This document shows positions 1 to 47,257 of a stretch of DNA of 64,000 nucleotides, piece by piece. Under the pieces are notes generated by a model. The model saw nothing but the letters and a program-made list of their open reading frames with translations, was not told the DNA's origin and did not search any database. Numbering within the stretch: position 1 is the first letter of the stretch; each line of letters begins with the position of its first letter. The DNA is from an uncultured Candidatus Saccharibacteria bacterium (GTDB lineage: Bacteria; Patescibacteriota; Minisyncoccia; Phycocordibacterales; UBA9973). The position numbers and the translations under genes are program-made. The stretch spans positions 18,161 to 82,160 of the forward strand of contig CAZYBS010000002.1 of NCBI GenBank assembly GCA_964645245.1. The letters are read 5' to 3'.

Positions 1-1171
1 AAGATTATACGAAATCATCGATTCCCGCACTTCTTACGAGTGCCAGTATGGGCTTTTCTTGAAAGACTGTTCAAGTTGTCTTTATTGTTTTGACTGCCGA
101 GGCTGTAATAATTGCTTCATGTCTTCGAACCTTCGCAATAAAAGCTATGTTTTTCGCAACAAACAGCTTTCTCGCGAAGAACATATGAAAAAGAAGAAAG
201 AATTGGAACTTTCTTCCTTTACCAATAGAGAAGGCCTGCGCAGGGAATGGTTAGACATGATGACAAATTCGATTCACCGATATGTCAGAAGCGCAAGAAA
301 TATAAATTCCACAGGCAGTTTTATTTATGATTGTAAAAATGTAACTCGATCTTTCGAAGTAGATAAAGGAGAAGACTCGAAACATCTGTATGCTACCATT
401 GACCCTAAAAACTGCATGGACCTCTACCATGTGGGTCTAAATCTTGAACTTTGTTATGAATGTCAGGGGTGCACGCGAACTTCCAACTGCCAATTTTGCC
501 ATCTGTGTTATGACAACATGAATGTTTCTTATTCCGATACTTGCCAAAACAGTCAGAACTTATTTGGCTGTGTATCTGTGAAAAAGGGTGAATATATGAT
601 TTTTAATAAAAAATATTCAAAAGCTGAATATGAAAAATTAAAAGCAAAAATCATTGAACACATGAGAAAAATAGGGGAGTACGGCGAATTTTTCCCGCCC
701 CAAAATGCGCCGGTGTATTACAATGAAACACAGGGCGCTCTCTATGTGCCAATGGAGAAAGAAGAAGTTTTAGCTAAAGGTTGGCATTGGGAAGACAATA
801 TTCCTGGGACTTTTGGGAAAGAAACAATCTCTGGTGGAGCTATACCCGATAAAATAGAGGATGTGCCGGACTCTTTTTTGAGTGAAGTTTTTTCTTGCGC
901 CACTTGTTCAAAAAATTATAATATTACTCAGAATGAACTTCTTTTCTTGAGAAAAGAGAGTGTGCCATTTCCCAGAAAATGCCCAAATTGCCGCTACAAG
1001 CGCAGATTTGATCTGCGTCCACCGAGAAGGCTTTGGCACAGGCAATGCATGTGCGACAGAAAAGACCATGGTCACGCGGGGAAATGTGATAATGAATTTG
1101 AGACCTCATACGCTCCTGGGCGACCAGAAAAAGTTTACTGCGAGAGCTGTTACAACAAAGAAGTATACTAA
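1..1171 (+). CDS. Cysteine-rich multi-CxxC protein, paralog 1 of 5 (5'-truncated by the window edge)
   Basis: Frame 2 is open from nt 2 upstream of the listed Met, so the gene starts before the window. The C-terminal ~150 aa module is conserved with the other paralogs (GEYGEFFP...PFPRKCPNCRYKRR...HGHAGKC...FETSYAPGRPEKVYCESCYNKEVY), and it has internal CxxCxxCxxC ladders. Confidence 0.75.
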   Translation, partial: RLYEIIDSRTSYECQYGLFLKDCSSCLYCFDCRGCNNCFMSSNLRNKSYVFRNKQLSREEHMKKKKELELSSFTNREGLRREWLDMMTNSIHRYVRSARNINSTGSFIYDCKNVTRSFEVDKGEDSKHLYATIDPKNCMDLYHVGLNLELCYECQGCTRTSNCQFCHLCYDNMNVSYSDTCQNSQNLFGCVSVKKGEYMIFNKKYSKAEYEKLKAKIIEHMRKIGEYGEFFPPQNAPVYYNETQGALYVPMEKEEVLAKGWHWEDNIPGTFGKETISGGAIPDKIEDVPDSFLSEVFSCATCSKNYNITQNELLFLRKESVPFPRKCPNCRYKRRFDLRPPRRLWHRQCMCDRKDHGHAGKCDNEFETSYAPGRPEKVYCESCYNKEVY

Positions 1172-3499: not shown

Positions 3500-4018
3500 T
3501 TATTTCCCAAACGCTTCGAACAGAATTTTTTTTGTCTCCTCGTCTATAAATTGGGTGACAATGATCATCATTTCGGTTGTGAGTCCCAAGTCCTTTTTTA
3601 TATTCGTAAATAAGTGCTCAAAGGGGTAGGGGGAAATCCAGGCGGAATTTTTCAGGCAGACAAAGCCCGCTTTTTTAAGAAGGTAGCGCAGGCCCTCCCG
3701 CTCGCCTTTTCTGTTTTCCGGCAAATCCAAAAGAATAATTCTCCAGAATCCATCCCATGTTTGAGGGACCAGGGCGTCTTCGCTCTCTAGTGTCATGGTG
3801 TTCAGCTTGGTTTTTCCGTGAGCTGTGATTTTGGCGTAATTTTGCCTTTCTGTTGCATGCATTTCAGCATATCCGCCTTCCACCAGGTTTTTAAGAGCAC
3901 GGGCCAAAGCGTAGGAGGTTTTTGCGTCTTTGTCTTTTAGTTCCTCCACAGAAACTGCCGGCTTCTCAGCCAGCTTTTTAAGTATTTTTTTACTGTATTT
4001 TTCTTTTGGACTTGACAT
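3500..4018 (-). CDS. PaaX-like regulator with a Cas2-fold C-terminal domain (putative transcription factor)
   Basis: It has the WDGFWRIILLDLPE....R..LR..L...GF..L..SAWISP pattern (WDG...SVW-type PaaX_C/Cas2-like signature). It is divergent from dnaK. Confidence 0.45.
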   Translation of the reverse strand: MSSPKEKYSKKILKKLAEKPAVSVEELKDKDAKTSYALARALKNLVEGGYAEMHATERQNYAKITAHGKTKLNTMTLESEDALVPQTWDGFWRIILLDLPENRKGEREGLRYLLKKAGFVCLKNSAWISPYPFEHLFTNIKKDLGLTTEMMIIVTQFIDEETKKILFEAFGK

Positions 4019-4138
4019 GCTTATAGCCTATCATATATACTCTCATTATACAAGTTTTTCGTGGTCGCAAATTAAATGTTAATTATTAATTTAACCTTAT
4101 GCCGCCTATGCTAAAGCTATGGCGAGCCAAAGAAATAT

Positions 4139-6049
4139 ATGAGCAAAATTATAGGAATAGATTTGGGTACGACAAATTCGGCTGTTGCCGTGATTGAAGG
4201 GGGTGCACCAAAGATTGTTGAAAATGTGGAAGGCAATCGCACTACCCCTTCAGTAGTTTCGGTTGCTAAAAATGGAGACCGGCTGGTGGGCTTACTGGCC
4301 AAGAGGCAAGCGGTGACAAACCCGGAAAATACGGTTTATGGCATTAAGCGTTTTATGGGCCATAATTTTGATGATGCCGAAGTACAGAAAGATTTGAAAA
4401 ATGCGTCGTTCAAGGTTCAGAAATCCGCAAACGGCGGAGTAGAGGTGAAAATTGGTGATAAATGGATGCGCCCGGAAGAAGTTTCCGCGATGATTTTAGG
4501 AAAAATAAAAGGGGATGTAGAAGCAAAACTGGGAGAAAAGATTACCGAAGCAGTCATCACTGTGCCGGCCTATTTCAATGATGCGCAAAGAAAAGCCACC
4601 AAAGACGCCGGAGCGATTGCCGGACTAGACGTAAAACGCATCATTAACGAACCCACGGCAGCTGCTCTTGCTTACGGCTTTAATAAAAAGAAAAACGAAA
4701 AAATAGTGGTGTATGATTTTGGCGGGGGAACTTTTGATGTCTCTATTCTGGAGATTGGAGATGATGTAGTAGAAGTTAAATCCACGGACGGGGACAGCCA
4801 CTTAGGGGGCCGTGATATTGACCATAAAATCATAAACTTCATTGCGGAAGAATTTAAAAAAACTTCCGGTGTAGATGTACGCAAAGACAAGCTGGCCCTG
4901 CAGCGTCTGGACGAAGCGGCCGAGAAAGCCAAGATAGAGCTTTCAACTGCGGTTGAAACAGAAGTCAATATTCCGTTTATTACTTCTACCGCGGCCGGCC
5001 CTCAACATTTGCTTTTGAAAATGACTCGCGCTCAATTGGAATCCATTGCCGACGAGTATATTGCCCGTGCCGTAGAAATTACCAAGCGCGCGATGGCCGC
5101 TTCCGGTTTTAAAATTGAAGACATGAATGAAGTGATAATGGTCGGCGGACAGACCCGCATGCCGAAAATTGTGGAAGAAGTGAAAAAGATTTTTAATAAG
5201 ACTCCAAACTTATCCATCAACCCTGACGAAGTCGTGGCGCTCGGCGCGGCGGTGCAGGCTGGCGTATTGCAGGGGGATGTGCGCGACGTTCTCTTGCTTG
5301 ATGTCATACCGCTTTCACTTGGTATTGAAACATTGGGCGGAGTGGCTACTAAATTAATTGAAAGAAATACGACTATTCCATCCTCTAAGTCTCAAATATT
5401 CTCAACCGCGGCTGATAACCAGACTTCAGTGGAAATCCATATTGTGCAAGGGGAGCGTCCGATGGCATCTGACAATAAATCTCTTGGCAGGTTTATTCTA
5501 GACGGCGTGCCACCAGCGCCTCGCGGCATGCCGCAGATTGAGGTGGTCTTTGATGTGGATGCGAATGGAATTTTGAATGTGACGGCGAAAGATAAAGCTT
5601 CCGGTAAAACCCAGTCAATACGGATAGAAGCGAGCTCCGGATTAAAAGAAGAAGATATTAAGAAGATGCAAGCAGATGCAGAACTTCACGCCGAAGAAGA
5701 TAAAAAGAAAAAAGAAGTTGTAGATATAAAGAATACGGCGGAAATGATTATTTACACTGCCGAAAAAGCGCTCAAAGACAATGAAGCAAAAATCCCGGCA
5801 GAATTAAAAGACAGCGTCAATGCCAAAATATCTGCGCTCAAAACTGCCAAGGACGGCACTGACTCTGATGCAATTAAAAAAGCTACAGAAGAACTTTCTG
5901 CCGAAATGTCCAAAATAGGGGAAGCTATGGCTAAGGCCGGAGCAGACAACCCTTCGGCAAGCTCAGGACAGGCCCCCGAAGAACAAAACCCAGAAGTAAA
6001 AGATGCGGAGTTTAAGGAAAAGAAAAACGGGGAAGAGCCTAAATCCTAA
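4139..6049 (+). CDS. dnaK: Molecular chaperone DnaK (Hsp70)
   Basis: Motifs [27 protein letters not shown] and IVQGER are present across the full 636 aa. Confidence 0.97.
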
Positions 6050-6054
6050 TAAAT

Positions 6055-6996
6055 ATGAAAAATAATTTAATAAAGAAGAAAAAAGTTTTCATTTTCCTTT
6101 TTATTATTTTGAGTTTATTTTACGTGAATAGGTTTTCTTATGCGCAAACAACTTTTATTGAAGTTCGAAATCAAACTAAAGACAACACCCAGCGTATACA
6201 AGATATTGAAGACAAGATGCTAGATCTTAAGGATAACTATAGATTACTTTATGATGGGGCTAAAAATCAAAATGATCAACTAGGTAATCTGATTTCTTAT
6301 TCAGGGTATATTTTGGCTATTTTGGGTATTATTCTTGCTGCATATATAAATAGTCAGTATAAAAAAATTAAAGAGTTGAAAGACATTGTTGAAACTACTA
6401 AAGAGTACATTGATAAAGATAATAAAAAATTATATGAAAATATAACAAGAGACGAGACACTAAAATTACTTAAGAGATTGAAAGAAGTTCCAGAAGATAT
6501 TACAAATATTTATCACTTATTGTTTTCGCGAGATTTATTAGAAGAAGATTATATATCCCTTAAAGAACAATATTTAAAAATCAAAAATGACAACTCTCAA
6601 AGAGAGGCGAAAGATATTTATATTATGTTATTAATGCAACATTTCCCATATCAGTCCCTAAAAGATTCAGAATTAAAGACCGAAGTAATTTCTAAAATAG
6701 ACTTAGATAGCTTAAATAGTATGTTTAGTAGAGATATTAAAAATTTTTTTGTTGAAACATTAAAATATTTAAAAGAATTTGGTATTGGACATGAGCAAGA
6801 AAAGACAATTATAAAAAATTTATTCTATTTCTATTCAAAGTCCCATTTCCAAGCTAATGTTGAACTAAATAATTACATCAAAGAATCAGTTGTAAAATCT
6901 AGTCTAAATGTTTTAGATATTCACAGTGTGGCGAAAGAACAAGCTCCCACAGATTCAACATATACAAATTGGTTAAATTCTATTTTCTCTTCCTAA
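6055..6996 (+). CDS. Hypothetical membrane-anchored coiled-coil protein (extremely AT-rich gene)
   Basis: N-terminal hydrophobic segment, a second TM near aa 80-100, and Lys/Glu/Asn-rich low complexity. Its composition is clearly lower in GC than dnaK. Confidence 0.45.
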   Translation: MKNNLIKKKKVFIFLFIILSLFYVNRFSYAQTTFIEVRNQTKDNTQRIQDIEDKMLDLKDNYRLLYDGAKNQNDQLGNLISYSGYILAILGIILAAYINSQYKKIKELKDIVETTKEYIDKDNKKLYENITRDETLKLLKRLKEVPEDITNIYHLLFSRDLLEEDYISLKEQYLKIKNDNSQREAKDIYIMLLMQHFPYQSLKDSELKTEVISKIDLDSLNSMFSRDIKNFFVETLKYLKEFGIGHEQEKTIIKNLFYFYSKSHFQANVELNNYIKESVVKSSLNVLDIHSVAKEQAPTDSTYTNWLNSIFSS

Positions 6997-7035
6997 AGCT
7001 TTTAGTTTTGGCTATTTTTTGATATAATTTTATTC

Positions 7036-7482
7036 ATGGTTGAATACAAAAAAAGTTCTGCGGTATTAGTTTTTAATGATAAAGGTGAGCTTGCGTTACA
7101 GCTACGTGCTGCGAACGATAGCTCATTTCCTTCTCATTGGGATTTTTCGGCAGGTGGTGGAATTGATGAAGGAGAAGATAATAAATATTCTGCTGAAAGG
7201 GAACTAAAAGAAGAACTCGGTATTGATGCAGAAGTAGAATTTATAATTGAAGAGCATTATACATATCCAGCTTGGAATCCATCCGTGAAAAGGGAAGTAG
7301 ATCTTTTCATTTACAAAACTTTTCACAATGGACCATTTAATCCAGATCTCAAAGAAATTGAGAAAGTGGAGTTTTTTGCACTTGATACAATTAAAAAAAT
7401 GATTAAATCCAGTCAGAAATTTCATCCGGAATTTGTTCTATCATGGAATAAAGGAATTATTTCTCAAGCCCTTATAAATTAA
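7036..7482 (+). CDS. NUDIX hydrolase
   Basis: Perfect Nudix box GGGIDEGEDNKYSAERELKEELGI (GX5EX7REUXEEXGU). Confidence 0.85.
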   Translation: MVEYKKSSAVLVFNDKGELALQLRAANDSSFPSHWDFSAGGGIDEGEDNKYSAERELKEELGIDAEVEFIIEEHYTYPAWNPSVKREVDLFIYKTFHNGPFNPDLKEIEKVEFFALDTIKKMIKSSQKFHPEFVLSWNKGIISQALIN

Positions 7483-7596
7483 GGGCTTTTTGCTTGACTT
7501 TTAACATAAAATGTGCTATACTTGTACCGTTATCAGAATTGAGTTTCTGGTAGCCTCTACGGATGTTTCGTAGAGATTGTACATTGAAAGGTTCGT

Positions 7597-7743
7597 ATGA
7601 AAAAAAGGATTGCGTTTTTTGTCGTGATCGTGGCACCGAGCGTGGTAACCATGGTGCTCAGCGGAGTTCATCCTGGGTGGATCACGGCCAATGTGCTGTG
7701 GTTTGTCCTGTTGGCTGCCGTGCACAAACTCCGGCAAGACTAG
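7597..7743 (+). CDS. Possible small hydrophobic protein (48 aa), not in the ORF track
   Basis: ATG is preceded by gaaagg. The translation MKKRIAFFVVIVAPSVVTMVLSGVHPGWITANVLWFVLLAAVHKLRQD has two hydrophobic stretches. An imperfect hairpin follows at ~7836-7872. It lies in a locally GC-richer patch that overlaps two mutually overlapping listed ORFs. Confidence 0.25.
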   Translation: MKKRIAFFVVIVAPSVVTMVLSGVHPGWITANVLWFVLLAAVHKLRQD

Positions 7744-7964
7744 CTTGCAACACAAGAGCGCAAACTCTTGATAAAAAATCTTGCCGCCAGCGTTCGAGAG
7801 TTTACAGGCGTTAAAGTCAGAACTCTCAATATCATCATCTCTCACTCATTAGAACCTTCGGGTTTTCTAATAGTGAGCAGTACAATGAAGGTTTTTGTCT
7901 AAATCTTTATTCCTCTGCTCATAACTCCTTTAATTTTTGCGAATTTCTGCTATAATTTACCCAT

Positions 7965-9941
7965 ATGGACTTGCCGGAAATACCCATAAATAAAGAAATC
8001 ACCTATCTCGGAATTACTACTTACAGGGACAAAAACCAGCTTTTTGGCATCAAGCGCAAAGACAGGCGCCAGCATGTTTATCTGTTGGGAAAGTCCGGTA
8101 CCGGTAAATCAGTGCTGATGTTCAACATGATTATCCAGAATATCCAAAATGGCGACGGGGTCTGCATGGTTGACCCGCATGGAGAAAATGTTGAAGCAAT
8201 TCTCTCCGCCATCCCGCCGCACCGCATGAAGGATGTGGTTTATTTCAATCCGGCCGATGCTGATTATCATATCGGCTTTAATGTATTGGAGCTGATTGAC
8301 CCGCAATACAAGCACTTGGTGGCTTCGGGACTGATGGGCATTTTTACTAAAATTTGGGCCAATGCCTGGAGCGCCCGAATGGAATATATTTTAAATAATG
8401 CAATTCTGGCTTTGCTGGATACGCCGGGCACGACGCTCCTGGGGATTCCTCGAATGCTGGTGGACAAAGATTATCGCCAGAAAATAATTTCCAATTTAAA
8501 GGACCCGGTCATCAAGGCTTTCTGGGTGCACGAATATGAAGCTTGGCAAGATAAATTCCGTAATGAAGCGATCGCCCCGATTCAGAATAAAGTCGGGCAG
8601 TTTCTTTCCACTTCCATCATCCGCAATGTCGTCGGTCAGTCCAAGAGCACGATTAATATCTTTGACATGATGAATGAGAGGAAAATTTTTCTGGTGAATG
8701 TTTCCAAGGGGCGCATCGGAGAGGACAACTCCGGCCTTTTGGGCGGCATGATTATTACCAAAATCCAGCTGGCCGCCATGGAACGCGTGCGTATTCCGGA
8801 AGAGTCCCGCACCGACTTTTATCTTTATGTGGATGAATTTCAGAATTTCGTGACCGATGCTTTTGCCGGCATTTTATCGGAGGCCAGAAAATACAGATTG
8901 AACCTGACGGTGGCTCACCAATATACCGCTCAACTTATTTCCGACAAAAGTTCCGCTGTACGCGATGCCGTCTTCGGTAATGTCGGTACAATGATTGTCT
9001 TTCGAACAGGCGCCGATGACGCGGAATTTCTGGAAAAAGAATTTGATCCGGAATTTACTCCGCAGGATATAGTGAACTTGCCCAACTATAAAGCTTATTT
9101 GAAATTAATGATCGATGGCGTAACATCCCGTCCTTTTTCCGCCAAAACTTTGCCACCGCTGGTAAAATCCGGCAATAAAGAGATTGAAGAAGAGGTAATA
9201 AAATCTTCTCGTATATTGTATTGTCGGCCGAGAGAGGTTGTGGAAAGGGAAATCAATGACTGGAGCGGAATGTCGCTGGGTGATGAAAATGCCCCAGGCG
9301 GTAGTATAGAAAAATTTCCAGCTGTCTGTTCAAGTTGCAAGAAAGAGACTACAGTTCCCTTCAAGCCGGAAAAAGGGCGTCCAGTTTACTGTAAAGAATG
9401 CATAGCCAGGATAAAGTCTGGTGAGATAAAAGTAGAAAAAGGGTCAGAAAATCAAATTAAACATGATGAAACTAAATTTTTCAAGCCGTTGGCTGATTTG
9501 GGTATAGAGTTTGAACAAAAAGATAGGGGTAGAATTAAAGAAGCAGAAAGATATCCCGAGAGAATTGATAAACATGGAATCATAGGGGCCGTGAAAAAAG
9601 TTTTTACCAAAAGTGAGATGCCAGTCCCAACCAAAGTCGAGATTCCTAAAAAACCCAAGGAAAATTTAGCATTAAGGGAAGTTTTAAATAAAATAAGTGA
9701 ACCAGTTTCGCTTGATACTTTAAAAAATAAGACCAAAGAAACTATATCCTCTAAGGATCGTGCCGCTAGCCCGGAAGATATGAGTAAGTTAAAAGACCTA
9801 ATTTTAGAAAAAGTTCCCGAAGCTAAAGAGGAGGAAAAGGAGGAGAAAGCCCCGACGCCCGCAGGGGTCGGGGTCCCGACTTCTAAGAGCGTCGGGACAA
9901 AAGAAGTGCCGGAAGACGTTTTGAGAAAAGTTTTGGAATAA
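7965..9941 (+). CDS. Soluble VirD4/TraG/TraD-superfamily P-loop ATPase (AAA_10 / T4CP-like) with a C-terminal Zn ribbon and Lys/Glu-rich tail, paralog A
   Basis: Walker A LLGKSGTGKS, DPHGE, Walker B FYLYVDEFQNF, and ARKYRLNLTVAHQYTAQL (TraG-D_C-like). There are no N-terminal TM helices. Residues ~455-478 read CSSCKKETTVPFKPEKGRPVYCKEC. Confidence 0.7.
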   Translation: MDLPEIPINKEITYLGITTYRDKNQLFGIKRKDRRQHVYLLGKSGTGKSVLMFNMIIQNIQNGDGVCMVDPHGENVEAILSAIPPHRMKDVVYFNPADADYHIGFNVLELIDPQYKHLVASGLMGIFTKIWANAWSARMEYILNNAILALLDTPGTTLLGIPRMLVDKDYRQKIISNLKDPVIKAFWVHEYEAWQDKFRNEAIAPIQNKVGQFLSTSIIRNVVGQSKSTINIFDMMNERKIFLVNVSKGRIGEDNSGLLGGMIITKIQLAAMERVRIPEESRTDFYLYVDEFQNFVTDAFAGILSEARKYRLNLTVAHQYTAQLISDKSSAVRDAVFGNVGTMIVFRTGADDAEFLEKEFDPEFTPQDIVNLPNYKAYLKLMIDGVTSRPFSAKTLPPLVKSGNKEIEEEVIKSSRILYCRPREVVEREINDWSGMSLGDENAPGGSIEKFPAVCSSCKKETTVPFKPEKGRPVYCKECIARIKSGEIKVEKGSENQIKHDETKFFKPLADLGIEFEQKDRGRIKEAERYPERIDKHGIIGAVKKVFTKSEMPVPTKVEIPKKPKENLALREVLNKISEPVSLDTLKNKTKETISSKDRAASPEDMSKLKDLILEKVPEAKEEEKEEKAPTPAGVGVPTSKSVGTKEVPEDVLRKVLE

Positions 9942-10010
9942 AATGCAAAGTGAAATTAGAAATTGCCCCGCCTTCGCTAAAGCTACGGACGGGCAGGCAA
10001 AATTGCAAAT

Positions 10011-11777
10011 ATGGTGAAAGATAAAGAAAAGAAAATATGCCAGAACTGCCGTGGTGAATTTACTATAGAGCCCGAGGATTTTAATTTTTATGAAAAGATA
10101 AAGGTACCGTCACCGACTTTTTGCCCGCTTTGCCGAGCGCAGAGGCGAATGGCTTTTAGAAATGAGCGGAAACTTTTTAAAGTTAAAAATCATTTTACTG
10201 GTCAAGATATTTTCTCTACATATCCGGAAGAAAGCGGAAGAAAAATTATTACCCGGGAAGAGTGGTTTGGGGACAGTTGGGATGCGATGAAGCATGGAAG
10301 TGACTATGATTTTTCAAAGCCTTTTTTAAAACAACTAAAAGAACTTGATAAAGAGGTGCTAGTTTTTAATTATAATGTTCTTAGGATGGTTAATAGTCCA
10401 TATGCATTTAACGCCTCAGGTTTAAAAAATTGTTACCTTATTGTCAACTCTAGTTATTCAGAAGATTGCATGTATGGTAATGCAATAGATTTTTGCAAAG
10501 ACTCAATAGATAACTCACATATAACTCACTCTGAGCGATGCCATGAATCTTTTTGGTTGGAAAATTGTTATCAATGTTATTTTACAATAATGTCAGCAGA
10601 TTCTCGCAATCTGTATTTTTGTAGAGATTGTGTTGGCTGTAACGATTGTTTCGGTTGTGCAAATTTACGCAAGAAATCTTATTGCATCTTTAATAAGCAA
10701 TATTCTAAACTAGATTATCAGGAAGAGCTTAAAAAAATGAATCTTCAAACTATTTCAGGCTTATCAAAGGCACACAAAAAGGCAAGAGAATTCTGGAATA
10801 CCCAACCAATTAAATGTCATCAAGGATTAAAAAATTTAAATTCAACAGGCTCCTACGTAACAAATTGTAAAAATGTGAATGATAGCTATTTAATCAGAGA
10901 AAGTGAAAATATGCGTTATTGCCAATATCAACAAATACCGGGGAACAAAGATTGTTATGATGTAACTAATTGGGGAGAGTACACAGAACTCAGTTATGAA
11001 ACAGTAGAATGTGGTGATAATTCTTATTGCGATAAGTTTTCTAAAAATTGTTGGCCTGCCTGCAGGAATAATGAATATTGCATAAACCTTTTCAGCTCAT
11101 CCGATTGTTTTGGTTGCGTAGGGCTAAAGAAAAAACAATATTGCATTTTGAATAAACAATACACTAAGGAAGAATATGAAAAAATGGTGGAAAAAATTAA
11201 GCAGCATATGGATAAAATGCCTTATGTTGACTTACAAGGCCTCGTTTATAAATACGGGGAATTTTTTCCAATAGAATTTTCTCCTTTTGGATATAATAAT
11301 ACACTTGCTATGCAACATTTCCCGTTAAGTAAAGAAGAGGTAATGAAAAAAAATTATGGATGGGTGGAAGTACCTCGCGGTGAGTATAAAATAACTAAAA
11401 AAGCGGAAGATTTACCAGATTCAATTGAAAATGTTGCAAATGAAATCCTAAAAGAAGTTTTTGAATGCGATAGTTGTAAAAATCCTTATAGAATATTAGA
11501 AAATGAATTTATATTTTATAAAAAAGAAAAACTGCCGTTACCCCGCTTGTGTAGTGAATGTAGGCACGAGCGGCGCATTAAGGACAGACTTAAATTGTTT
11601 TTATACGAAAGGACTTGCATGTGCGCAGGTATTATAGACCAGACCAATACGTATAAAAATACTATTTCCCATATTCATAAAGATTTTCCTTGTGGAGAAA
11701 GATTTAAAACCGGATATGCTCCCGGCCGACTGGAGATAGTTTACTGCGAAAAGTGTTACCAGCAAGAAGTTTATTAA
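10011..11777 (+). CDS. Cysteine-rich multi-CxxC protein, paralog 3
   Basis: 588 aa with the conserved N-terminus CQNCRGEFTIEPEDFNFYEKIKVPSPTFCPLCRAQRRM and C-terminus ...YCEKCYQQEVY. Confidence 0.8.
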   Translation: MVKDKEKKICQNCRGEFTIEPEDFNFYEKIKVPSPTFCPLCRAQRRMAFRNERKLFKVKNHFTGQDIFSTYPEESGRKIITREEWFGDSWDAMKHGSDYDFSKPFLKQLKELDKEVLVFNYNVLRMVNSPYAFNASGLKNCYLIVNSSYSEDCMYGNAIDFCKDSIDNSHITHSERCHESFWLENCYQCYFTIMSADSRNLYFCRDCVGCNDCFGCANLRKKSYCIFNKQYSKLDYQEELKKMNLQTISGLSKAHKKAREFWNTQPIKCHQGLKNLNSTGSYVTNCKNVNDSYLIRESENMRYCQYQQIPGNKDCYDVTNWGEYTELSYETVECGDNSYCDKFSKNCWPACRNNEYCINLFSSSDCFGCVGLKKKQYCILNKQYTKEEYEKMVEKIKQHMDKMPYVDLQGLVYKYGEFFPIEFSPFGYNNTLAMQHFPLSKEEVMKKNYGWVEVPRGEYKITKKAEDLPDSIENVANEILKEVFECDSCKNPYRILENEFIFYKKEKLPLPRLCSECRHERRIKDRLKLFLYERTCMCAGIIDQTNTYKNTISHIHKDFPCGERFKTGYAPGRLEIVYCEKCYQQEVY

Positions 11778-11819
11778 GTGATATCAATATCATCATACTA
11801 GTGTGCTAGTATAAAAATT

Positions 11820-13544
11820 ATGAACAGTGAAAATAAAAATTGTCAGAATTGTAAAAAAGACTTCATCATCGAGCCGGAGGATTTTAATTTTTATGAGAAA
11901 ATAAAAGTTCCGCCACCGACTTTCTGTCCGGAGTGCCGGCTTCAAAGGCGCATGGCTTGGCGCAACGAGCGCACCCTTCATAGAAATAAGTGCGCCAAAA
12001 CAGGCAAAAGTTTGATTAGCTGCTTTTCTGCCGATTCGCCATTTACCGTTTACGATAGGGATATTTGGTGGGGAGACAAGTGGGATCCTACAGCATATGG
12101 AGTGGAATATGATTTCTCAAAGTCTTTCTTTAGCCAGTTCCGCAAACTTTTAGAAAAAGTTCCTCATCCAAATCTTTTTATAGGAAAATGCGTTAATACT
12201 TTCTATGGAAATTATATTGGTGAATTTAGAAATTCATACCTTGTATCAGCATCTTGGGTCGGAGATAACATAGCTTACGCATCACGTTGCAATAACTGCA
12301 AAGATTCTGTGGATATGTTTACCGTCAATAACTGTGAATTTTCTTATGAAGATGTTTCTTCTTCTAAGTGTTACGAAACTTTTTTCTCGCACAACGCTGA
12401 TTCCTGTACCAGTTCTTATTTTCTTTATGATTGTAAAAATTGCATAAATTGTTTTGGTTGCACATCACTTCGTAATAAATCTAACTGTATGTGGAACAAG
12501 CAACTTACCAAAGAAGAGTATGATAAAAAGTTTAAGGACTTAGATATTGGAAGTTTCGAAAATTTTAAAAAAATACAACAAGAATTCGAGGGACTTAAAT
12601 TAAAAGCTATTAGAAGATTTGCTAATATTATAAATTCTACTAATGTTTCTGGGGATGATATATTTCATTCTACTAATTCTCACTATTGTTTTGCTATATC
12701 AGATGATGTGAAGGATTGTAAGTTCATAATTAATTCTCTTGATCGTCTGTATAATAGTTATGATGGATACGGAACTGGTGCCAATACGGAATTGGTTTAT
12801 GAGGGAATGGACTCTGGCGTGAACGGATCCAGACAGTTATTCGTGCTTACAGTCTGGGAGTGCATGAATACAGAATATTCAATTAATTGTCATGGGTGCA
12901 ATAATATTTTTGGTTGCGCAGGCCTCCGTAAGAAAGATTATTGCATTTTTAACAAACAATATTCAAAAGAGGAATATGAAAAAATCAGGGCTCAGATAAT
13001 TGGACAGATGAATAAAATGCCATACGTTGACAAAAAAGGTCGTTCGTATAAATACGGGGAGTATTTCCCAGTGGAAATTTCTCCATTTGGATATAATGAA
13101 ACTGTATCGCAAGACTACTTCCCGCTTTCTAGAGAAGAAATTTTGAAGAACGGCTATAACTGGGTTGAACGAGAGAAACCAGAATATAAAACCACTTGTA
13201 CATCTAAAGATTTACCAGATCACATTAAAGATACTGATGAAAGTATTTTAAGTTTAGTCATTGAATGCGAATCCTGTAAAAGACCTTATAAAATTATTGA
13301 AAACGAGTATCTTTTTTTGAAAAGATTTAGTCTGCCGATACCACGGAAATGTTTTGAATGTCGCCACCAAGAACGATTTAAAAAGGTTAATCCGCCTAAA
13401 ATTTATCATAGGCAATGCATGTGCGAAAAAGGAAATCATTCTCATGGAGCAGGGAAGTGTACGGTAGAATTTGAAACATCCTACGCTCCCGACAGGCCTG
13501 AGATTATTTACTGCGAAAAATGTTACCAGCAGGAAGTGTATTAA
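11820..13544 (+). CDS. Cysteine-rich multi-CxxC protein, paralog 4
   Basis: 574 aa with the same N- and C-terminal modules (CQNCKKDFIIEPEDFNFYEKIKVPPPTFCPECRLQRRM ... FETSYAPDRPEIIYCEKCYQQEVY). Confidence 0.8.
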   Translation: MNSENKNCQNCKKDFIIEPEDFNFYEKIKVPPPTFCPECRLQRRMAWRNERTLHRNKCAKTGKSLISCFSADSPFTVYDRDIWWGDKWDPTAYGVEYDFSKSFFSQFRKLLEKVPHPNLFIGKCVNTFYGNYIGEFRNSYLVSASWVGDNIAYASRCNNCKDSVDMFTVNNCEFSYEDVSSSKCYETFFSHNADSCTSSYFLYDCKNCINCFGCTSLRNKSNCMWNKQLTKEEYDKKFKDLDIGSFENFKKIQQEFEGLKLKAIRRFANIINSTNVSGDDIFHSTNSHYCFAISDDVKDCKFIINSLDRLYNSYDGYGTGANTELVYEGMDSGVNGSRQLFVLTVWECMNTEYSINCHGCNNIFGCAGLRKKDYCIFNKQYSKEEYEKIRAQIIGQMNKMPYVDKKGRSYKYGEYFPVEISPFGYNETVSQDYFPLSREEILKNGYNWVEREKPEYKTTCTSKDLPDHIKDTDESILSLVIECESCKRPYKIIENEYLFLKRFSLPIPRKCFECRHQERFKKVNPPKIYHRQCMCEKGNHSHGAGKCTVEFETSYAPDRPEIIYCEKCYQQEVY

Positions 13545-13589
13545 ACACAACATTTTGCAAAATGACAAAATGTTGATAAGATAAATAAC

Positions 13590-13862
13590 ATGAGTTTACC
13601 ATATAAAAAAATCGAAAAAATAGTAAAAGGATTTGCAAATCATAGGCGACTTCAAATATTGGAGCTTCTAAGTAGAGTCCCTAATTTATCAGTTGATGAC
13701 ATATCTCAAAATTTAGATGTTGGATTTTTTACTATTTCAGATCATATACGCAAAGCGACTGATGCGGGATTAATTGAAAAGAAATATAAAGGTCGTTTTG
13801 TGCTTCACAGTCTTACAAAGAGAGGGAGGCATATTTTGTTATTTTGCAAAATGTTTAAATGA
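13590..13862 (+). CDS. ArsR/SmtB-family winged-helix transcriptional regulator
   Basis: 90 aa with HRRLQILELLSRVPNLSVDDISQNLDVGFFTISDHIRKATDAGLI (HTH plus wing). Confidence 0.6.
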   Translation: MSLPYKKIEKIVKGFANHRRLQILELLSRVPNLSVDDISQNLDVGFFTISDHIRKATDAGLIEKKYKGRFVLHSLTKRGRHILLFCKMFK

Positions 13863-13871
13863 GAAATTAAT

Positions 13872-14849
13872 GTGAAAAGTGAAACGAAAACTCTAAAAAA
13901 TAAAAAAGAATTTTTCATTTTCCCGACCTTACCATTTCATTTTGACGGCACATTTCACAAACCATCACATTTTCCAGATAAACTTAGTGATTGGCAAACT
14001 GGTAAGCATTGGCAAACCATTCGTCTTGGTAAAAGACTTTTCGGATTAAAAATTGAAAATAAAGGAGAGAAGCAAAAACCAAAAATAAAAGTTTCAGTTT
14101 TTTATAATAACACGATTTCTGGCAAGGAATTAGAAGATATTAAGCAGGAAATCATCTGGCGTTTTGATTTAAACGCTGATTTAAAAGAATTTAATAAACT
14201 AGCCAGAAATGACAAGCGTTTTTATCCGATTTTCAAAAAATGGCTAGGGATGCGAAACTCAAGTGCACATAATTTATATGAACTTCTGATCATTGCAGTG
14301 CTTTTGCAAAATGCAACAGTTAGACGAACAGTCCAAATGATAGGCACGCTTCTTGATAGTTATGGTACTAGGTTGAAATTTGATAAAAAAGAAATTTTTG
14401 CCATTTGGCTTCCGGAAAGATTGAAAAATGTTTCAGAGCAGGATTTAAGGAATTTAAAAATAGGTTATCGGGCAAAATTTATCAAGCGTTTATCAAAAGA
14501 TTTTGCCGAAAGTCAAGTTGATGAGCAGAAACTCAGATTACTTAATCAAGAAAGTGCAAAGAAAGAATTACTAAAACTTTTTGGAGTTGGACCGGAAACT
14601 GCCCGTATATTGCTTTTTGAAGTTTGTCACCAATACAATACTTTTGACCATATAGCACCATGGCAACAAAAAATATATTCTCGATTGTTTTATAAAAAGC
14701 CGCTAGTCTCTGTTAATAAAATTAGAGATGATATTAAAAAACAGTATGGCGAATACTCTATGCTGGCGGTTCACTATATCTGGGAAGATATTTTTTGGAG
14801 AAGAAAAAATGAAAGAATTGACTGGCTGGAAAGAGAAATCAGGCTTTAA
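13872..14849 (+). CDS. HhH-GPD superfamily DNA glycosylase (AlkA-like)
   Basis: Helix-hairpin-helix motif LLKLFGVGPETARILLFEV followed by an Asp (NTFDHIAPW), and an N-terminal AlkA-like region. Confidence 0.5.
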   Translation: MKSETKTLKNKKEFFIFPTLPFHFDGTFHKPSHFPDKLSDWQTGKHWQTIRLGKRLFGLKIENKGEKQKPKIKVSVFYNNTISGKELEDIKQEIIWRFDLNADLKEFNKLARNDKRFYPIFKKWLGMRNSSAHNLYELLIIAVLLQNATVRRTVQMIGTLLDSYGTRLKFDKKEIFAIWLPERLKNVSEQDLRNLKIGYRAKFIKRLSKDFAESQVDEQKLRLLNQESAKKELLKLFGVGPETARILLFEVCHQYNTFDHIAPWQQKIYSRLFYKKPLVSVNKIRDDIKKQYGEYSMLAVHYIWEDIFWRRKNERIDWLEREIRL

Positions 14850-14904
14850 TTATAAGCTAAATAACTGTTGGAAAATAATCTAAAATCGTGCTAAAATAGC
14901 CCAT

Positions 14905-16407
14905 ATGCCAAAACCGGGTCGAGTGCAAATAATCAAATATGGTCCGCCGCCGCCGGAATTGCCGGTTTTTGGAAAGATAGACCCGACCGAGGTGTCTTTC
15001 ATCGGACGTACAAATTACGTTGCCGCATTAGAGGAGAAAAAGTTTATATTCGGCATCAAGCGCATAGACCGCCGCCGGCATCTTTATATTGTCGGCAAGT
15101 CCGGCGTTGGTAAAACCAAACTTCTGGAACTTCTTATCCGTCAAGATATAACCTATGGCCATGGATTATGCCTGATTGACCCGCACGGCGATGTGATGGA
15201 GGCAATACTGGACTATATACCCAAGGAACGCATAGAAGATGTTTGCATTATCAACCCGCCCGACGTTGATTTTCCGGCCTCTTTCAACCCATTGGCGAAT
15301 GTTGATCCGATGTTTAAGTTTCAATTGACTCAAGGGTTGATTGAAGTTTTCCAAAAACAATTCGGAGCCAACTGGACGCCCAGGCTGGAGCACGTTTTCC
15401 GCTTTACCTGTTTGGCCTTGCTGGATTATCCGCACGCGACGATGCGCGGCATGATTTCCATGCTGACCGACCGAAATTACCGGCAGAAGGTGGTGGAGTA
15501 TATTACCGACGATATGGTAAAAAGATTCTTCGCTATTGAATTCGCCGACTGGTCGGAGAAGTTTGACACCGATGCCATTATCCCGCTAGTTAACAAGCTC
15601 GGGCAATTCCTCTCCGACCCGCTCTTGCGCAATATCTTCGGCCAAAAGCAGAACAAGATAGACATCAGTAAGCTGATGAACGAGCAAAAGATTATTCTAA
15701 TTAATATCTCCAAAGGCCGTCTGGGAGAAGAAAATTCCTCTTTTCTTGGTTCTATCTTTCTGACTAAAATAAAACAAGCGGGTATGGAGCGCGCGGCTAT
15801 ACCAGAAAAAGACCGTACGGACTTTTATCTATACGTGGATGAGTTTCACAATGTCGTTACTCAGACCTTTGAAAACATTTTATCCGAGGCCAGAAAATAT
15901 GCTTTAAGTTTAACTATGGCCCATCAATATGTTGGTCAGGTTATTCCCCGAGTTCACCAAGCGGTACTTGGTAATTGCGGTAGTGTGATTACTTTTCGTA
16001 TTAGTGGTGAAGACGCAGTTAAAATGAAACCGGAATTTGCGCCTTTGTTTGACGTGAAGGATATGATCAATCTGGCTGTCGCGGAATTTTATATAAAAAT
16101 GACCATTGACGGTGAGTCCTATGACCCATTTTCGGCTGAAACACTTCGAGTTCTTCCCCCGACTCATCCCTCATACAGAGAAGAAATTATGGCGGCCTCT
16201 CGCCGGAAATATTCAATACCAAAAGACGACGCGGCCAAGCTTATTGCCGAGGAAGAGGCGACAATCATCCGAAGCGCCGAAGAGAAGGCAATTATCGAGA
16301 GCAAAGCTAAAAGAAAAGCAAAAGAAAAAGGAGAAGATAATGGCGAAGAAGATGAAAAAGAAAAACCTAAAGCAAAAGCTTCACAAGAAGCCGAACCCAT
16401 GATATAA
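14905..16407 (+). CDS. Soluble VirD4/TraG/TraD-superfamily P-loop ATPase, paralog B
   Basis: Walker A IVGKSGVGKT, DPHGD, Walker B FYLYVDEFHNV, and ARKYALSLTMAHQYVGQV. It is colinear with paralog A over the first ~400 aa and has a Lys/Glu-rich C-terminal tail. Confidence 0.7.
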   Translation: MPKPGRVQIIKYGPPPPELPVFGKIDPTEVSFIGRTNYVAALEEKKFIFGIKRIDRRRHLYIVGKSGVGKTKLLELLIRQDITYGHGLCLIDPHGDVMEAILDYIPKERIEDVCIINPPDVDFPASFNPLANVDPMFKFQLTQGLIEVFQKQFGANWTPRLEHVFRFTCLALLDYPHATMRGMISMLTDRNYRQKVVEYITDDMVKRFFAIEFADWSEKFDTDAIIPLVNKLGQFLSDPLLRNIFGQKQNKIDISKLMNEQKIILINISKGRLGEENSSFLGSIFLTKIKQAGMERAAIPEKDRTDFYLYVDEFHNVVTQTFENILSEARKYALSLTMAHQYVGQVIPRVHQAVLGNCGSVITFRISGEDAVKMKPEFAPLFDVKDMINLAVAEFYIKMTIDGESYDPFSAETLRVLPPTHPSYREEIMAASRRKYSIPKDDAAKLIAEEEATIIRSAEEKAIIESKAKRKAKEKGEDNGEEDEKEKPKAKASQEAEPMI

Positions 16408-28994: not shown

Positions 28995-29043
28995 AGTTAT
29001 CCACAGACCATTTTTAAATGACCTTGCTTCCTCTTTTTTATAT

Positions 29044-29069
29044 GTTATCATGTACTAGTACATGATAAC
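29044..29069. promoter_or_regulatory. Perfect 26-bp palindrome GTTATCATGTACTAGTACATGATAAC with a trp-operator-like GTACTAGTAC core
   Basis: Read directly from the sequence. It is 50 bp downstream of the TrpR-like gene. Confidence 0.5.
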
Positions 29070-29104
29070 AATAGAAATCAACCAAATAGGTAAATCATGG
29101 TGGG

Positions 29105-29150
29105 GCGCAAAGCATCTAGCTTTTGCGTCGTTTTGTTGATTTCTTTTTCT
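29105..29150 (+). terminator. Rho-independent terminator after the trpS/trpR-like unit
   Basis: CGCAAAGC-ATCTA-GCTTTTGCG hairpin followed by TCGTTTTGTTGATTTCTTTTT. Confidence 0.6.
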
Positions 29151-29417
29151 ACCAAATAATAAGGAATCCATTAAGTGGCGCATGAGCGTCATTTTTTGTT
29201 CTTTGTTTTTTGGGGGATTATGAGAAAAAAAATCTTTGTCTGGCTGGAAGATTTTATCTTCTGGCTTGAACAGATCTTATTTAGAGTTCGCAAAGCTCTT
29301 TGGAAGATTGATGGCTTGGGCGGGGGTGAATAAAAAAACTTCTACCAACAAAGTTTGGGGGCGTCGCTTGTTCTACAAGCGGCGTCCATCAAATATTAAC
29401 AAAATAAAAATACGAAT

Positions 29418-29612
29418 ATGAAACATCAATTTATGTCAAGAATTAAATGCCTCATGCTCACTGGTCATAGAATGGGGAAATACCAGAGTAAAATAGTCAA
29501 TGGAGTGTACGGTAAAGTGGAGGCTCAAAAGACAAGGTGTGCAGATTGTCAATATGTTCAAAAGTATTGGGTCATAAAAGAAAAATTAAGACAATCAGTA
29601 AGATGCAATTAA
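29418..29612 (+). CDS. Small 4-Cys (putative zinc-ribbon) protein, cassette copy 1
   Basis: 64 aa with Cys at 11, 41, 44 and 63. Its paralog is at 37495..37686(-), and its stop is 1 nt from the next ATG. Confidence 0.55.
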   Translation: MKHQFMSRIKCLMLTGHRMGKYQSKIVNGVYGKVEAQKTRCADCQYVQKYWVIKEKLRQSVRCN

Positions 29613-29613
29613 G

Positions 29614-29799
29614 ATGAATTTATTAAAAGGAATTTTTGAACTATGTGTTGTATTGCCTACATTGATGCTAATTGATGGAGGTAAAAGGTGGTCAAAATAT
29701 TTAAACGAAGACGATCCATTGGAAGCTTTTCTCTGGACCTTGTTGGTAATATTAGTTTTTGCGTTGATTGTATTGTTAATAAATGGTTATGAATATTAA
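29614..29799 (+). CDS. Small 2-TM membrane protein, cassette copy 1
   Basis: 61 aa with two hydrophobic segments. Its paralog is at 37311..37493(-). Confidence 0.55.
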   Translation: MNLLKGIFELCVVLPTLMLIDGGKRWSKYLNEDDPLEAFLWTLLVILVFALIVLLINGYEY

Positions 29800-29814
29800 G
29801 TAAAATATAAATTT

Positions 29815-36028: not shown

Positions 36029-36037
36029 AATTTACAT

Positions 36038-36070
36038 ATCTCTAATTCGCGCGAATAGGCGAATAGTTAT
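36038..36070. repeat. Intergenic repeat R1 (ATCTCTAATTCGCGCGAATAGGCGAATAGTTAT) containing the palindrome ATTCGCGCGAAT; copy 1 of 3
   Basis: Related copies are at 40734..40766 and 47190..47257. Confidence 0.6.
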
Positions 36071-36976: not shown

Positions 36977-37268
36977 AGCTTCTCCTTTCAAAGAACAGAT
37001 TTGTCGTCTCGGAACATCCGAGCATACATGAAAGAACAAAAACACCAGCCGAGAGGGCTGGTGTTTGAGTTGTAAGTTGAGTTTTAGTTTTTTTACAGCG
37101 CAAATATCAGCCTTCTAATGGAAAGCTGGTAATAAGCATTTAATATTGAAGTATTTCTTTGTTGTTGAATATTACTATTCATATTTCGCATACTAGCATG
37201 TTTTGATAAAAAGCGCAAGCGAATTTGTAGAAGTCATAATTCCGCTTATACTATCTACTTCACTCAAT

Positions 37269-37293
37269 TAAAGTACTTTAGTTAAGTAAAGTA
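37269..37293. promoter_or_regulatory. Repeat R2 (TAAAGTACTTTAGTTAAGTAAAGTA), same as the putative operator at 40681..40705
   Basis: 24 of 25 nt are identical to the 40681 copy, and it contains TAAAGTA/TACTTTA half-sites. Confidence 0.45.
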
Positions 37294-37310
37294 ATGGATA
37301 TAAATAATAT

Positions 37311-37493
37311 TTATCTATAGCCCATTAATAAAAGTATAATTAATACACAAACTAATATTATTAATAAGGTCCACAAAAAAGCATTCCAAGGGTCTTCTTC
37401 ATTTAAATATTTTGACCATTTCTTACTTCCATCGATTAATATCAGTATTGGTAGCTGAATACATAAAAAGAAAATTGGTTCAAAAACTCCCAT
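37311..37493 (-). CDS. Small 2-TM membrane protein, cassette copy 2
   Basis: Paralog of 29614..29799 (LPILILIDGSKKWSKYLNEEDP...). Confidence 0.55.
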   Translation of the reverse strand: MGVFEPIFFLCIQLPILILIDGSKKWSKYLNEEDPWNAFLWTLLIILVCVLIILLLMGYR

Positions 37494-37494
37494 G

Positions 37495-37686
37495 TTAGTT
37501 GCACCTTACTGGTGATCTTAGCTTTTCTTTGGCGACCCAAAATTTTTCAATATAAAAACAGTTCACGCATCTTGTTCTTTGCGCTTCGACTTTGCCATAG
37601 ACTCCGTTTACCATCTTGGTTTGGTATTTTTTCATTTTGTGGCTGGTCAATAGGCAGCATTTAATTCTTAAAATTATTTTATTCAT
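37495..37686 (-). CDS. Small 4-Cys protein, cassette copy 2
   Basis: Paralog of 29418..29612 (KMVNGVYGKVEAQRTRCVNC...VRCN). Confidence 0.55.
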   Translation of the reverse strand: MNKIILRIKCCLLTSHKMKKYQTKMVNGVYGKVEAQRTRCVNCFYIEKFWVAKEKLRSPVRCN

Positions 37687-37761
37687 GGCTTTGTAAGTAA
37701 TAAAAATTTTTGGAGGAAGGGAAGGGTGATGTGCCCAACCCTTCCGCCAATGTATCTATCT

Positions 37762-40706: not shown

Positions 40707-40733
40707 CTAGGGGAGGTGTGGATAACTTATTAT

Positions 40734-40766
40734 ATCCCTAATTCGCGCGAATGAGCCTATACTTAT
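40734..40766. repeat. Intergenic repeat R1 copy 2 (ATCCCTAATTCGCGCGAATGAGCCTATACTTAT)
   Basis: Shares ATC(T/C)CTAATTCGCGCGAAT with 36038..36070. Confidence 0.55.
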
Positions 40767-47188: not shown

Positions 47189-47189
47189 T

Positions 47190-47257
47190 ATCTCTAATTC
47201 CTGCCAGAGGCAGGCAAACGCGCCTGTCCGCCTTTGGTGGAAATAGGCGAATGGTTA
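47190..47257. repeat. Intergenic repeat R1 copy 3, carrying a 43-bp GC-rich hairpin insert (CCTGCCAGAGGCAGG...)
   Basis: ATCTCTAATTC ... AATAGGCGAATGGTTAT matches the ends of copy 1, with foreign sequence in place of the central GCGCG. Confidence 0.5.

Follow-up and report, generated by a model that had tools for sequence, protein, structure and literature searches.

A hairpin shared by the dnaK leader and a Cys-rich gene spacer of a Saccharibacteria contig is probably a copy of a short palindromic repeat found across bacterial phyla

The present analysis concerns a hairpin-forming sequence that occurs twice in a 64,000-nucleotide (nt) stretch of DNA from an uncultured Candidatus Saccharibacteria bacterium (GenBank assembly GCA_964645245.1, contig CAZYBS010000002.1, forward-strand positions 18,161 to 82,160; this whole stretch is hereafter called the window), once in the leader of the chaperone gene dnaK and once upstream of a gene for a cysteine-rich (Cys-rich) protein. 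An earlier reading of the same DNA, made from the letters alone and referred to here as the sequence-only reading, had noticed the shared motif and suggested that it might be a common operator, joining the Cys-rich gene and the neighboring ATPase gene to the control of the Hsp70 system. Our results point elsewhere, namely that the two sites are, with a probability of about 0.75, independent copies of an interspersed palindromic repeat of about 31 nt, similar in kind to the repetitive extragenic palindromic (REP) sequences and the miniature inverted-repeat transposable elements (MITEs), which has spread over phyla and viruses.

That the motif is real and non-random, as had been supposed, was clear from its statistics in the window. 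The pattern CCGCCT-NN-GCTAAAGCTA-YGG (21 nt, CCGCCTNNGCTAAAGCTAYGG) matched at exactly two places, 4102-4122 and 9968-9988, both on the plus strand, against a chance expectation of 0.01; two matches were obtained in none of 100 dinucleotide shuffles, and no third match was found in the 64 kb even when three mismatches were allowed. The 10-nt core GCTAAAGCTA by itself was unremarkable (four matches with at most one mismatch, where 5.3 were expected in the window), and thus the signal resides in the whole unit. The corresponding 28-nt sequences are gCCGCCTATGCTAAAGCTATGGCGAGCC at 4101-4128 (+), henceforth copy 1, the last base of which lies 10 nt before the dnaK ATG at 4139, and cCCGCCTTCGCTAAAGCTACGGACGGGC at 9967-9994 (+), copy 2, ahead of the ATG at 10011 of a Cys-rich open reading frame (ORF) of 588 amino acids. 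The sequence-only reading had placed the first of these correctly and the second one position off, and its distances to the start codons, about 20 and 26 nt, were too long, since the dnaK start follows the 28-mer by the 10 nt just mentioned and the Cys-rich start follows the tail of copy 2 by 12 nt. A covariance model of the family scored copy 2 at 40.8 bits (E=4e-8) and copy 1 at 31.1 bits (E=1e-5), with the next match in the window at 13 bits. The two copies are different sub-variants, in that internal loop, bulge position and tail all differ, and the sequence that follows the hairpins reads CAAAGAAATAT or CAGGCAAAATTGC.

The two sites belong to a family that reaches far beyond the window. 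The family set was obtained by scanning one-genome-per-species contigs with the 21-nt pattern, which was found at no fewer than 120 loci (designated here by L numbers) in more than 12 phyla; all family counts given below are among the matches listed. The carriers include Gamma-, Alpha- and Deltaproteobacteria, Bdellovibrionota, Acidobacteriota, Verrucomicrobiota, Bacteroidota, Planctomycetota and Omnitrophota, and further Nitrospirota (Nitrospiraceae), Desulfobacterota, Elusimicrobiota (Endomicrobium), Saccharibacteria and many other Patescibacteria. It is unlikely that these cross-phylum matches are all mis-binned contigs of one lineage, because the contigs concerned measure 0.5-2.6 Mb and two complete genomes are among the carriers. 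Eleven stretches with the pattern were also found in viral contigs of IMG/VR. Copy 2 is identical, through its tail, to copies in two other candidate-phyla genomes (L053 and L093), and several metagenome-assembled genomes (MAGs) contributed two to three matching contigs each. Nested or tandem half-sites occur at L039, L010 and L109, and inverted doublets at L032, L035, L045 and L118.

The borders of the repeat are sharp. At the listed loci the flanks of the copies share nothing, while the positions that the search had left free are strongly conserved from -1 to +28, with the information content falling to zero at -2 and at +29. The consensus at these free positions is Y before the pattern, T and C at the two Ns, and C-G-G, R, C, A, A and G after it. 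The conserved free positions, together with the unrelated flanks, thus define a unit of about 31 nt, with the consensus Y-CCGCC-TTC-GC-TAAA-GC-TAC-GGCGG-R-CAAG, i.e., a 26-nt hairpin followed by a tail of 4-5 nt. No previous description of this unit was recovered by several routes. Rfam gave no match at its gathering score in the whole window, and permissive scans at both sites gave only chance-level matches (E>4), none of them on the hairpin; BLAST of the consensus against the PLSDB plasmids and INPHARED phages, which are collections from cultured organisms, returned no match; and a full-text literature search by DNA, RNA and peptide strings found nothing relevant, while searches by subject led to nothing beyond the general REP classification paper (PMC3733652), with the proviso that the family may be described under another name. 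A fragment of a universal RNA (tRNA, rRNA, tmRNA or signal recognition particle RNA) was considered and found no support in the Rfam scan, and a likeness to the codons of the tmRNA tag (GCTTTAGC) was judged coincidental.

The guess of the sequence-only reading that both sites could fold as an imperfect stem-loop was borne out, since the predicted fold presents GCTAAAGC in both copies. Both sites fold alike, into a 6-bp GC stem with one bulged A each, a 3x3 internal loop, a 2-bp GC mini-stem and a TAAA loop. The outer stem of copy 1 pairs G4101-C4106 with G4121-C4127, leaving A4125 bulged, and is followed by an internal loop of TAT opposite TAT, an inner stem of G4110-C4111 with G4116-C4117, and the TAAA loop at 4112-4115; in copy 2, C9967-C9972 pairs with G9987-G9993 with A9989 bulged, the internal loop is the canonical TTC opposite TAC, and the loop is again TAAA. 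The outer stem consists of six G-C pairs in copy 2, as it does in the family consensus with C at -1. The predicted minimum free energy is -10.8 to -12.4 kcal/mol for copy 1, and -11.6 (forward) and -13.3 (reverse) kcal/mol for the unit folded as RNA. The reverse strand is thus slightly more stable, and CUYG occurs on it in 19 of 31 loops, which may be read as a suggestive hint of the strand that folds. Assignment of the reverse strand as the folding strand was nevertheless dropped, as the first set had nine C.A and no T.G at the outer pair, and an independent viral set had two C.A and three T.G.

The stem covaries across the family. The outer pair (-1/+24) is the sole stem pair that the search left free on both sides, and in the strict set it was C-G in 32 copies, T-A in 26, A-T in two, G-C in one and C.A in six. 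Among 139 matches to the covariance model the pair was C-G in 59, T-A in 47, G-C in 10 and A-T in four, with 10 unpaired and nine C.A. Covariation as high as that observed was reached by none of 500 shuffles, and it collapsed when the register was slid; no pairing was found beyond this outer pair in the family alignment. Diverged copies in the same loci have doubly compensated stems (CCCAC/GTGGG in L016, and others in L027 and L033; CGCTCC/GGAGCG; inner GG/CC). The unpaired parts, on the other hand, are conserved in sequence, namely the internal loop of TTC opposite TAC (GUA/GAA on the other strand) and the tail. The TAAA loop marks one sub-family only: when the loop was left free, the viral contigs yielded CGAG in 10 copies, CAAG in nine, TAAA in four and TGAA in two.

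The family is independent of its neighboring genes. Of 123 copies, 72 are intergenic, and the four possible arrangements relative to the flanking genes are about equally frequent (18, 17, 12 and 10), revealing no orientation bias. In an all-against-all BLASTP of the ORFs, no neighbor protein family recurred at more than five of the 120 loci; this search covered 8-kb samples around each locus, from which a single RAYT gene per genome would escape. The most recurrent neighbors were housekeeping proteins (ABC ATPases, histidine kinases, EF-Tu and DnaX), and none of the 120 other loci encodes DnaK near the repeat. A tRNA gene lies within 150 nt at about 15 of the 120 loci, which is an enrichment, and in some cases it abuts the element. 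The distance is 0-60 nt in L001, L005, L021, L022, L034, L054, L059, L060, L063, L069, L070 and L117; the repeat sometimes overlaps the first or last bases of the tRNA, as for tRNA-Pro (L001, L034) and tRNA-Ala (L117), and in most copies downstream of a tRNA it is the CTTG...GCGAAGGCGG strand that runs in the tRNA sense. The unit can be read through in four of its six frames, and some copies form part of the coding sequence of protein linkers. In two cultured bacteria, Bdellovibrio bacteriovorus Bd16 (L002, 157-192) and Maricaulis sp. (L017, 694-728), the entire hairpin is an in-frame part of the Ala/Pro-rich linker of E2 (dihydrolipoamide acyltransferase, SucB-like), where it encodes ..SASAKATDGQ.., and adjoins the E3 gene. 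It was also noted that copies often lie in or beside short AT-rich tandem repeats with units of 5-8 nt (caatatt, gaaatct, gtgaaac, agttgaca and others), as in L044, L215, L218, L110, L030, L012, L031, L077 and L091.

Short direct repeats flank the unit more often than chance allows. By a loose test, direct repeats of at least 7 nt flanked 16 copies, where random positions close to these copies would predict 3.7. Under a strict geometry, which allows 0-3 nt between the left repeat and CCGCC and places the right repeat immediately past the tail, 14 of 136 copies had repeats of at least 6 nt, where 1.6 would be expected (p about 1e-9). Their lengths range from 6 to 10 nt, with a mode of 7, and in L077 and L044 deletion of the unit plus one flanking repeat restores the local sequence. 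Copy 2 of the window is among these 14, with AAATTGC on either side (Table 1). Transposition of the RAYT or IS200/IS605 type, which proceeds through a single strand, is not known to make a target duplication; duplication of the target would therefore argue against such a mechanism and for integration at a staggered cut.

Among relatives, each of the two window sites is either filled or empty as a whole unit. The junction between the ATPase and Cys-rich genes has a spacer of 0 nt in L124 and of 3 nt in L210. Upstream of three further close Cys-rich homologs there are 4, 12 and 28 nt, and copy 2 was absent from the orthologous or homologous upstream site in all five relatives examined; copy 2 is thus specific to the lineage of the window. 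For copy 1, 61 unique orthologous dnaK leaders with the conserved TTGACA were compared, the metagenome loci having been found through homologs of the PaaX-like regulator and of DnaK. The element is present in six of the 61 and absent from about 50, including those of the closest relatives. Most leaders are empty, with 92-106 nt from TTGACA to ATG and no hairpin, among them that of the sister L129, the regulator of which is 90% identical. The extra leader DNA of the window relative to L129 and L179 is exactly the hairpin plus tail, and the boundaries of the same indel are exact against the empty leader of L156 also. Absence from the leaders of relatives, which the sequence-only reading had named as a finding that would speak against its motif, was therefore largely what we found, with the reservation that five distant relatives keep a copy. 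These five (L171, L189, L160, L208 and L150) have the same sub-variant as the window (GGCGAGCC-AAAG) at the same distance from the ATG, and their regulators, 58-81% identical, are scattered on the regulator tree. In the six leaders all 48 pair cells are paired, and RNAalifold independently finds the same structure; there are two compensatory double changes, of the outer G-C to U-A (L150) and of the inner C-G to U-A (L160), together with a single U.G wobble, which is a pair on the mRNA strand alone. The leader copies differ by few bases, every stem change being either compensated or a wobble, and the AT-rich leader sequence next to them is more variable. In the dnaK leaders of L123, L132, L136 and L138 this position is taken by a composite palindromic insert (..accctgttaaatagccctaacgggctaagaccaaaggtcttatttaacagggt..) some 100 nt long. 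From such comparisons, this region of the dnaK leader appears to tolerate or attract hairpin insertions.

As for how the repeat came to lie at the two sites, an enzyme acting in trans would have inserted the unit in one piece at a staggered cut. Both window copies, being on the sense strand of transcribed spacers, would then form mRNA hairpins of about -11 to -12 kcal/mol, and the A-rich last 10-17 nt before the AUG would be left single-stranded. Any effect on dnaK or the Cys-rich gene would be a local by-product, through mRNA stability or spacing, with no shared regulatory input, and in some lineages the copy in front of dnaK may have been recruited to a modest part in translation or in the stability of the mRNA. 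A bolder version would recognize here a hitherto uncatalogued class of ultra-small mobile elements, with a target duplication of about 7 bp and an enzyme acting in trans, distributed with near-identical sequence over more than 12 phyla and their viruses, and with one copy domesticated in the dnaK leader of some Paceibacteria; to our knowledge, a hairpin of about 31 nt is smaller than any described MITE, and we consider this version rather improbable. Several results weigh against regarding the sites as copies of an interspersed, mobile repeat. No transposase or insertion sequence adjoins any copy among the 120 loci, and the orientation of the copies relative to GC skew showed no convincing bias (66:54 in a sign test). 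The flanking-repeat signal is limited to about 10% of the TAAA-loop copies, and none of 26 copies with other loops from the viral contigs had flanking repeats (0.3 expected). There are only two strict copies in the 64 kb. Lastly, conservation of the leader copy in the five relatives looks like purifying selection rather than neutral junk, and other GC hairpins, with AAAG or AAAA loops, are found at the same leader position in L143, L184, L127 and L126.

The last two points are also those that favor a function for the dnaK-leader copy, which, judged by the leader alignments, may be under selection. By this account, which is compatible with the interspersed-repeat origin, copy 1 would be a co-opted RNA hairpin, stabilizing the message or modulating its translation, selected in some Paceibacteria and placed just upstream of an A-rich dnaK start region that lacks a Shine-Dalgarno sequence. 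It draws on one sub-variant found equally far from the ATG in the window and five relatives, on the full pairing with its two double changes and the wobble specific to the mRNA strand, on the other small hairpins at the same place, and on the finding that the element is confined to dnaK leaders within 250 kb of related loci. That last finding is biased, since the sampled 250 kb are all dnaK neighborhood, and the statistics of six sequences are weak, as the observed value was reached by 17 of 500 shuffles. The hairpin is also dispensable, being absent from about 50 of the 61 unique leaders, the closest relatives included; it makes no contact with the start codon or a Shine-Dalgarno-like sequence and is too GC-rich to melt at mild heat; and a function at dnaK says nothing on copy 2, which is unique to the window lineage. 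We therefore regard co-option as possible, with the odds against it.

Two further explanations were considered. Stable GC-rich hairpins in intergenic spacers, one of them 26 nt past a stop codon, could be transcription terminators or attenuators that share their sequence by chance, and the element often lies just downstream of the tRNA where a tRNA gene is near. Neither hairpin, however, is followed by a U-tract on either strand, and a terminator scan flagged neither; the gene whose leader contains copy 1 codes for an essential chaperone, the family is neutral in orientation, and what is conserved across phyla is the sequence, including the unpaired internal loop and tail, and not structure alone. 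This explanation is accordingly very improbable. Even less credit can be given to the operator or regulon signal of the sequence-only reading, by which dnaK and the Cys-rich/ATPase block would be co-regulated with heat shock. Both copies are indeed on the sense strand and just upstream of a start codon, and relatives have the Cys-rich and ATPase genes in synteny with dnaK or dnaJ. That reading was also correct in seeing no CIRCE element, as TTAGCACTC-N9-GAGTGCTAA had no match in the window at up to three mismatches. Against this, the motif is a trans-phylum repeat without gene association, with no dnaK at the 120 other loci; the copy 2 site is empty in five of five relatives; the two copies differ in the internal loop, bulge and tail, which is where a specific site must match; and a much better candidate for an operator exists beside the -10 box of every dnaK leader. 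Two copies of a widespread repeat are no evidence of joint regulation of the two genes, and the shared motif thus does not support their co-regulation.

Table 1. Coordinates of the two repeat copies, the direct repeats flanking copy 2 and the dnaK promoter (window positions).
Feature	Start	End	Strand	Basis or remark
Copy 1 hairpin, dnaK 5' leader	4101	4127	+	Pattern match, minimum free energy, covariance model, orthologous leaders
Copy 1 unpaired 3' tail, CAAAG (family consensus CAAG)	4128	4132	+	Ends 6 nt before dnaK ATG 4139
Copy 2 hairpin, ATPase/Cys-rich spacer	9967	9993	+	Pattern match, covariance model, identity to L053/L093
Copy 2 unpaired 3' tail, CAGGC	9994	9998	+	Family tail variants CAAG, CAGG, TAAA
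Left AAATTGC, 7-nt direct repeat flanking copy 2 (putative target-site duplication)	9960	9966	+	
Right AAATTGC, 7-nt direct repeat flanking copy 2	10000	10006	+	
Sigma-70-like dnaK promoter, TTGACA-18-TATACT (not part of the repeat)	4012	4041	+	11/12 consensus match

The control region of dnaK deserves separate description. The gene is transcribed divergently from a gene of 172 amino acids with a PaaX_M domain (3500-4018, minus strand). Measured from the promoter listed in Table 1, copy 1 occupies roughly +52 to +84 in a leader some 90 nt long. Conservation of TTGACA and TATCATATATACT extends over 46 unique orthologous dnaK leaders, and in these 46 a conserved segment, TTATACAAGTTTTTAGTGGTCGCGAAATATA.GTTAAA, directly follows the -10 box (4046-4075 in the window). 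Twelve other leaders have the same segment in the opposite orientation, forming the inverted repeat CAAGT(A/T)TTTCG-N6-CGAAA(A/T)ACTTG, which overlaps TTGACA; it faces the divergent PaaX_M-like regulator gene, and its right arm is degenerate in the window. When the window was searched for this candidate operator, only the dnaK site rose above chance. The inverted repeat beside the -10 box is the likely dnaK operator in this clade, and it is a better candidate for dnaK control than the hairpin repeat.

A functional link between the Hsp70 system, the ATPase and the Cys-rich protein is pointed to, independently of the motif, by gene order as read from the sequenced loci. The order is dnaK-ATPase-Cys-rich in L124, dnaK-ATPase-ATPase in L126 and L127, Cys-rich-ATPase-dnaJ in L209 and ATPase-Cys-rich-Cys-rich-ATPase in L210; the TraG/VirD4-like ATPases carry a zf_Tbcl_2 domain, and the genes concerned lie within 4139-16407 in the window. 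The window ATPase gene (7965-9941) encodes a treble-clef zinc finger, and copy 2 lies within the 69-nt spacer between its stop codon (9939-9941) and the Cys-rich gene at 10011-11777. The window DnaK is 90-92% identical to the DnaK of Nomurabacteria, Paceibacterota and Minisyncoccia MAGs, which places the window in a Patescibacteria genome. The Cys-rich protein (about 560-590 amino acids) occurs as five paralogs in the window (59-1171, 1215-2894, 10011-11777, 11820-13544 and 45464-47188); it has no Pfam match, and the Paceibacterota proteins to which it is 70-80% identical number in the thousands and are without exception annotated as hypothetical.

The genome is compact and AT-rich, with most spacers shorter than 70 nt, so that the occasional GC-rich hairpins stand out; about 25 distinct ones were counted in the window, against about four expected. 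Two of them lie in frame and adjacent to each other at 9850-9905 of the ATPase ORF, in a variable linker before the conserved C-terminus EVPEDVLRKVLE. They read CCCCGAC..GTCGGGG and TCCCGAC-TTC-TAAGAGC-GTCGGGA-CAAAAG, and the second mirrors the layout of the repeat in its TTC, its TAA and its CAAAAG tail; relatives have other GC hairpins at the same place in the linker, e.g., ttcgcccgtagacgggctac in L124. A second small intergenic repeat, ATATCTCTAATTCGCGCGAATAGGCGAATAGTTAT (family D17), is found after gene ends at 36036-36070, 40732-40766 and 47224-47258, with 66-100% identity, and the spacer 47189-47297 also contains CCTGCC-AGA-GGCAGG-CAAAC, a minimal hairpin with the same kind of tail. Two stretches of this otherwise tightly packed genome are free of ORFs of at least 70 amino acids, namely 28995-29814 (820 nt) and 37046-37761 (716 nt), and neither gave an Rfam or tRNA match.

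These results have several consequences. Placement of the Cys-rich/ATPase block in a heat-shock regulon by way of the shared leader motif is removed as wrong, and attention shifts to the candidate control region of dnaK, with its conserved promoter and the inverted repeat facing the PaaX_M-like gene. A 31-nt unit that is near-identical from Patescibacteria to Acidobacteriota and viral contigs is a handy marker for the spread of tiny palindromes between phyla, and for the enzyme that mobilizes them. For annotation, it is to be noted that such repeats yield spurious shared motifs, small ORFs and in-frame peptides of the AFAKATAGK type in metagenomes, and that their recognition averts misreading.

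When the known systems are compared, the repeat resembles CIRCE/HrcA and the ROSE and fourU elements in its position in a dnaK leader and its inverted-repeat character; it differs from the former in that the window has no CIRCE sequence and the repeat is not specific for heat-shock genes, and from the latter in that its hairpin does not pair with the ribosome-binding site or AUG and is GC-rich and not heat-labile. An RNA thermometer of the ROSE or fourU type was in fact rejected, since the stem is rich in GC and the AUG lies 11 nt (copy 1) and 17 nt (copy 2) beyond the last predicted pair. Rickettsia palindromic elements are 100-150 nt long and not known outside Rickettsia, and the GC clusters of yeast mitochondria are organellar and duplicate a fixed short target. 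The repeat resembles both as a GC-rich palindrome that invades AT-rich compact genomes, in spacers as well as in frame in tolerant parts of proteins, and no sequence relationship to either was found. With MITEs such as Correia/NEMIS, RUP and ERIC it shares a non-autonomous nature, inverted ends (YCCGCC/GGCGGR), flanks that in about 10% of the TAAA-loop copies look like target-site duplications, insertion beside or in genes, a hairpin in the mRNA and a patchy presence among close relatives. It departs from them in its length (31 nt, against roughly 50-500 nt for known MITEs), in perfect inverted ends of only 6 bp (11 bp with two mismatches), in its asymmetry with a one-sided tail, in flanking repeats of variable length (6-10 nt, mode 7), and in having no known parent insertion sequence, none adjoining the listed copies.

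REPs are stem-loops of 20-40 nt tagged with GTAG or CGTC, found in several phyla as singletons, dimers and clusters, and sometimes within genes; the CGTC REPs have no dedicated transposase, and some REP families are common to distant phyla (Di Nocera et al. 2013, PMC3733652, where the Rickettsia palindromic elements are cited as well). The present repeat differs from them in its tag, which is CAAG (CTTG on the other strand), CAGG or TAAA and not GTAG, CGTC or the variants TGTC and CCTC, GTAG being present only inside the hairpin on the reverse strand. It also lacks a CCA tail and A/T at the first stem pairs, about 10% of its copies have flanking direct repeats, its apparent copy number in this genome is low (two strict copies in the 64 kb), and its spread is unusually wide for a near-identical sequence. 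On the other hand, it is likewise an imperfect palindrome of 20-40 nt with an unpaired tag at one end; its stem, internal mismatches and GC-flanked apical loop follow the modular layout of the Escherichia coli-type GTAG-3 REPs (PMC3733652); and most of the listed copies lie outside genes, in either orientation, singly or as inverted dimers and clusters, with some inside genes. The closest known kind is thus a palindromic repeat of the REP/MITE type.

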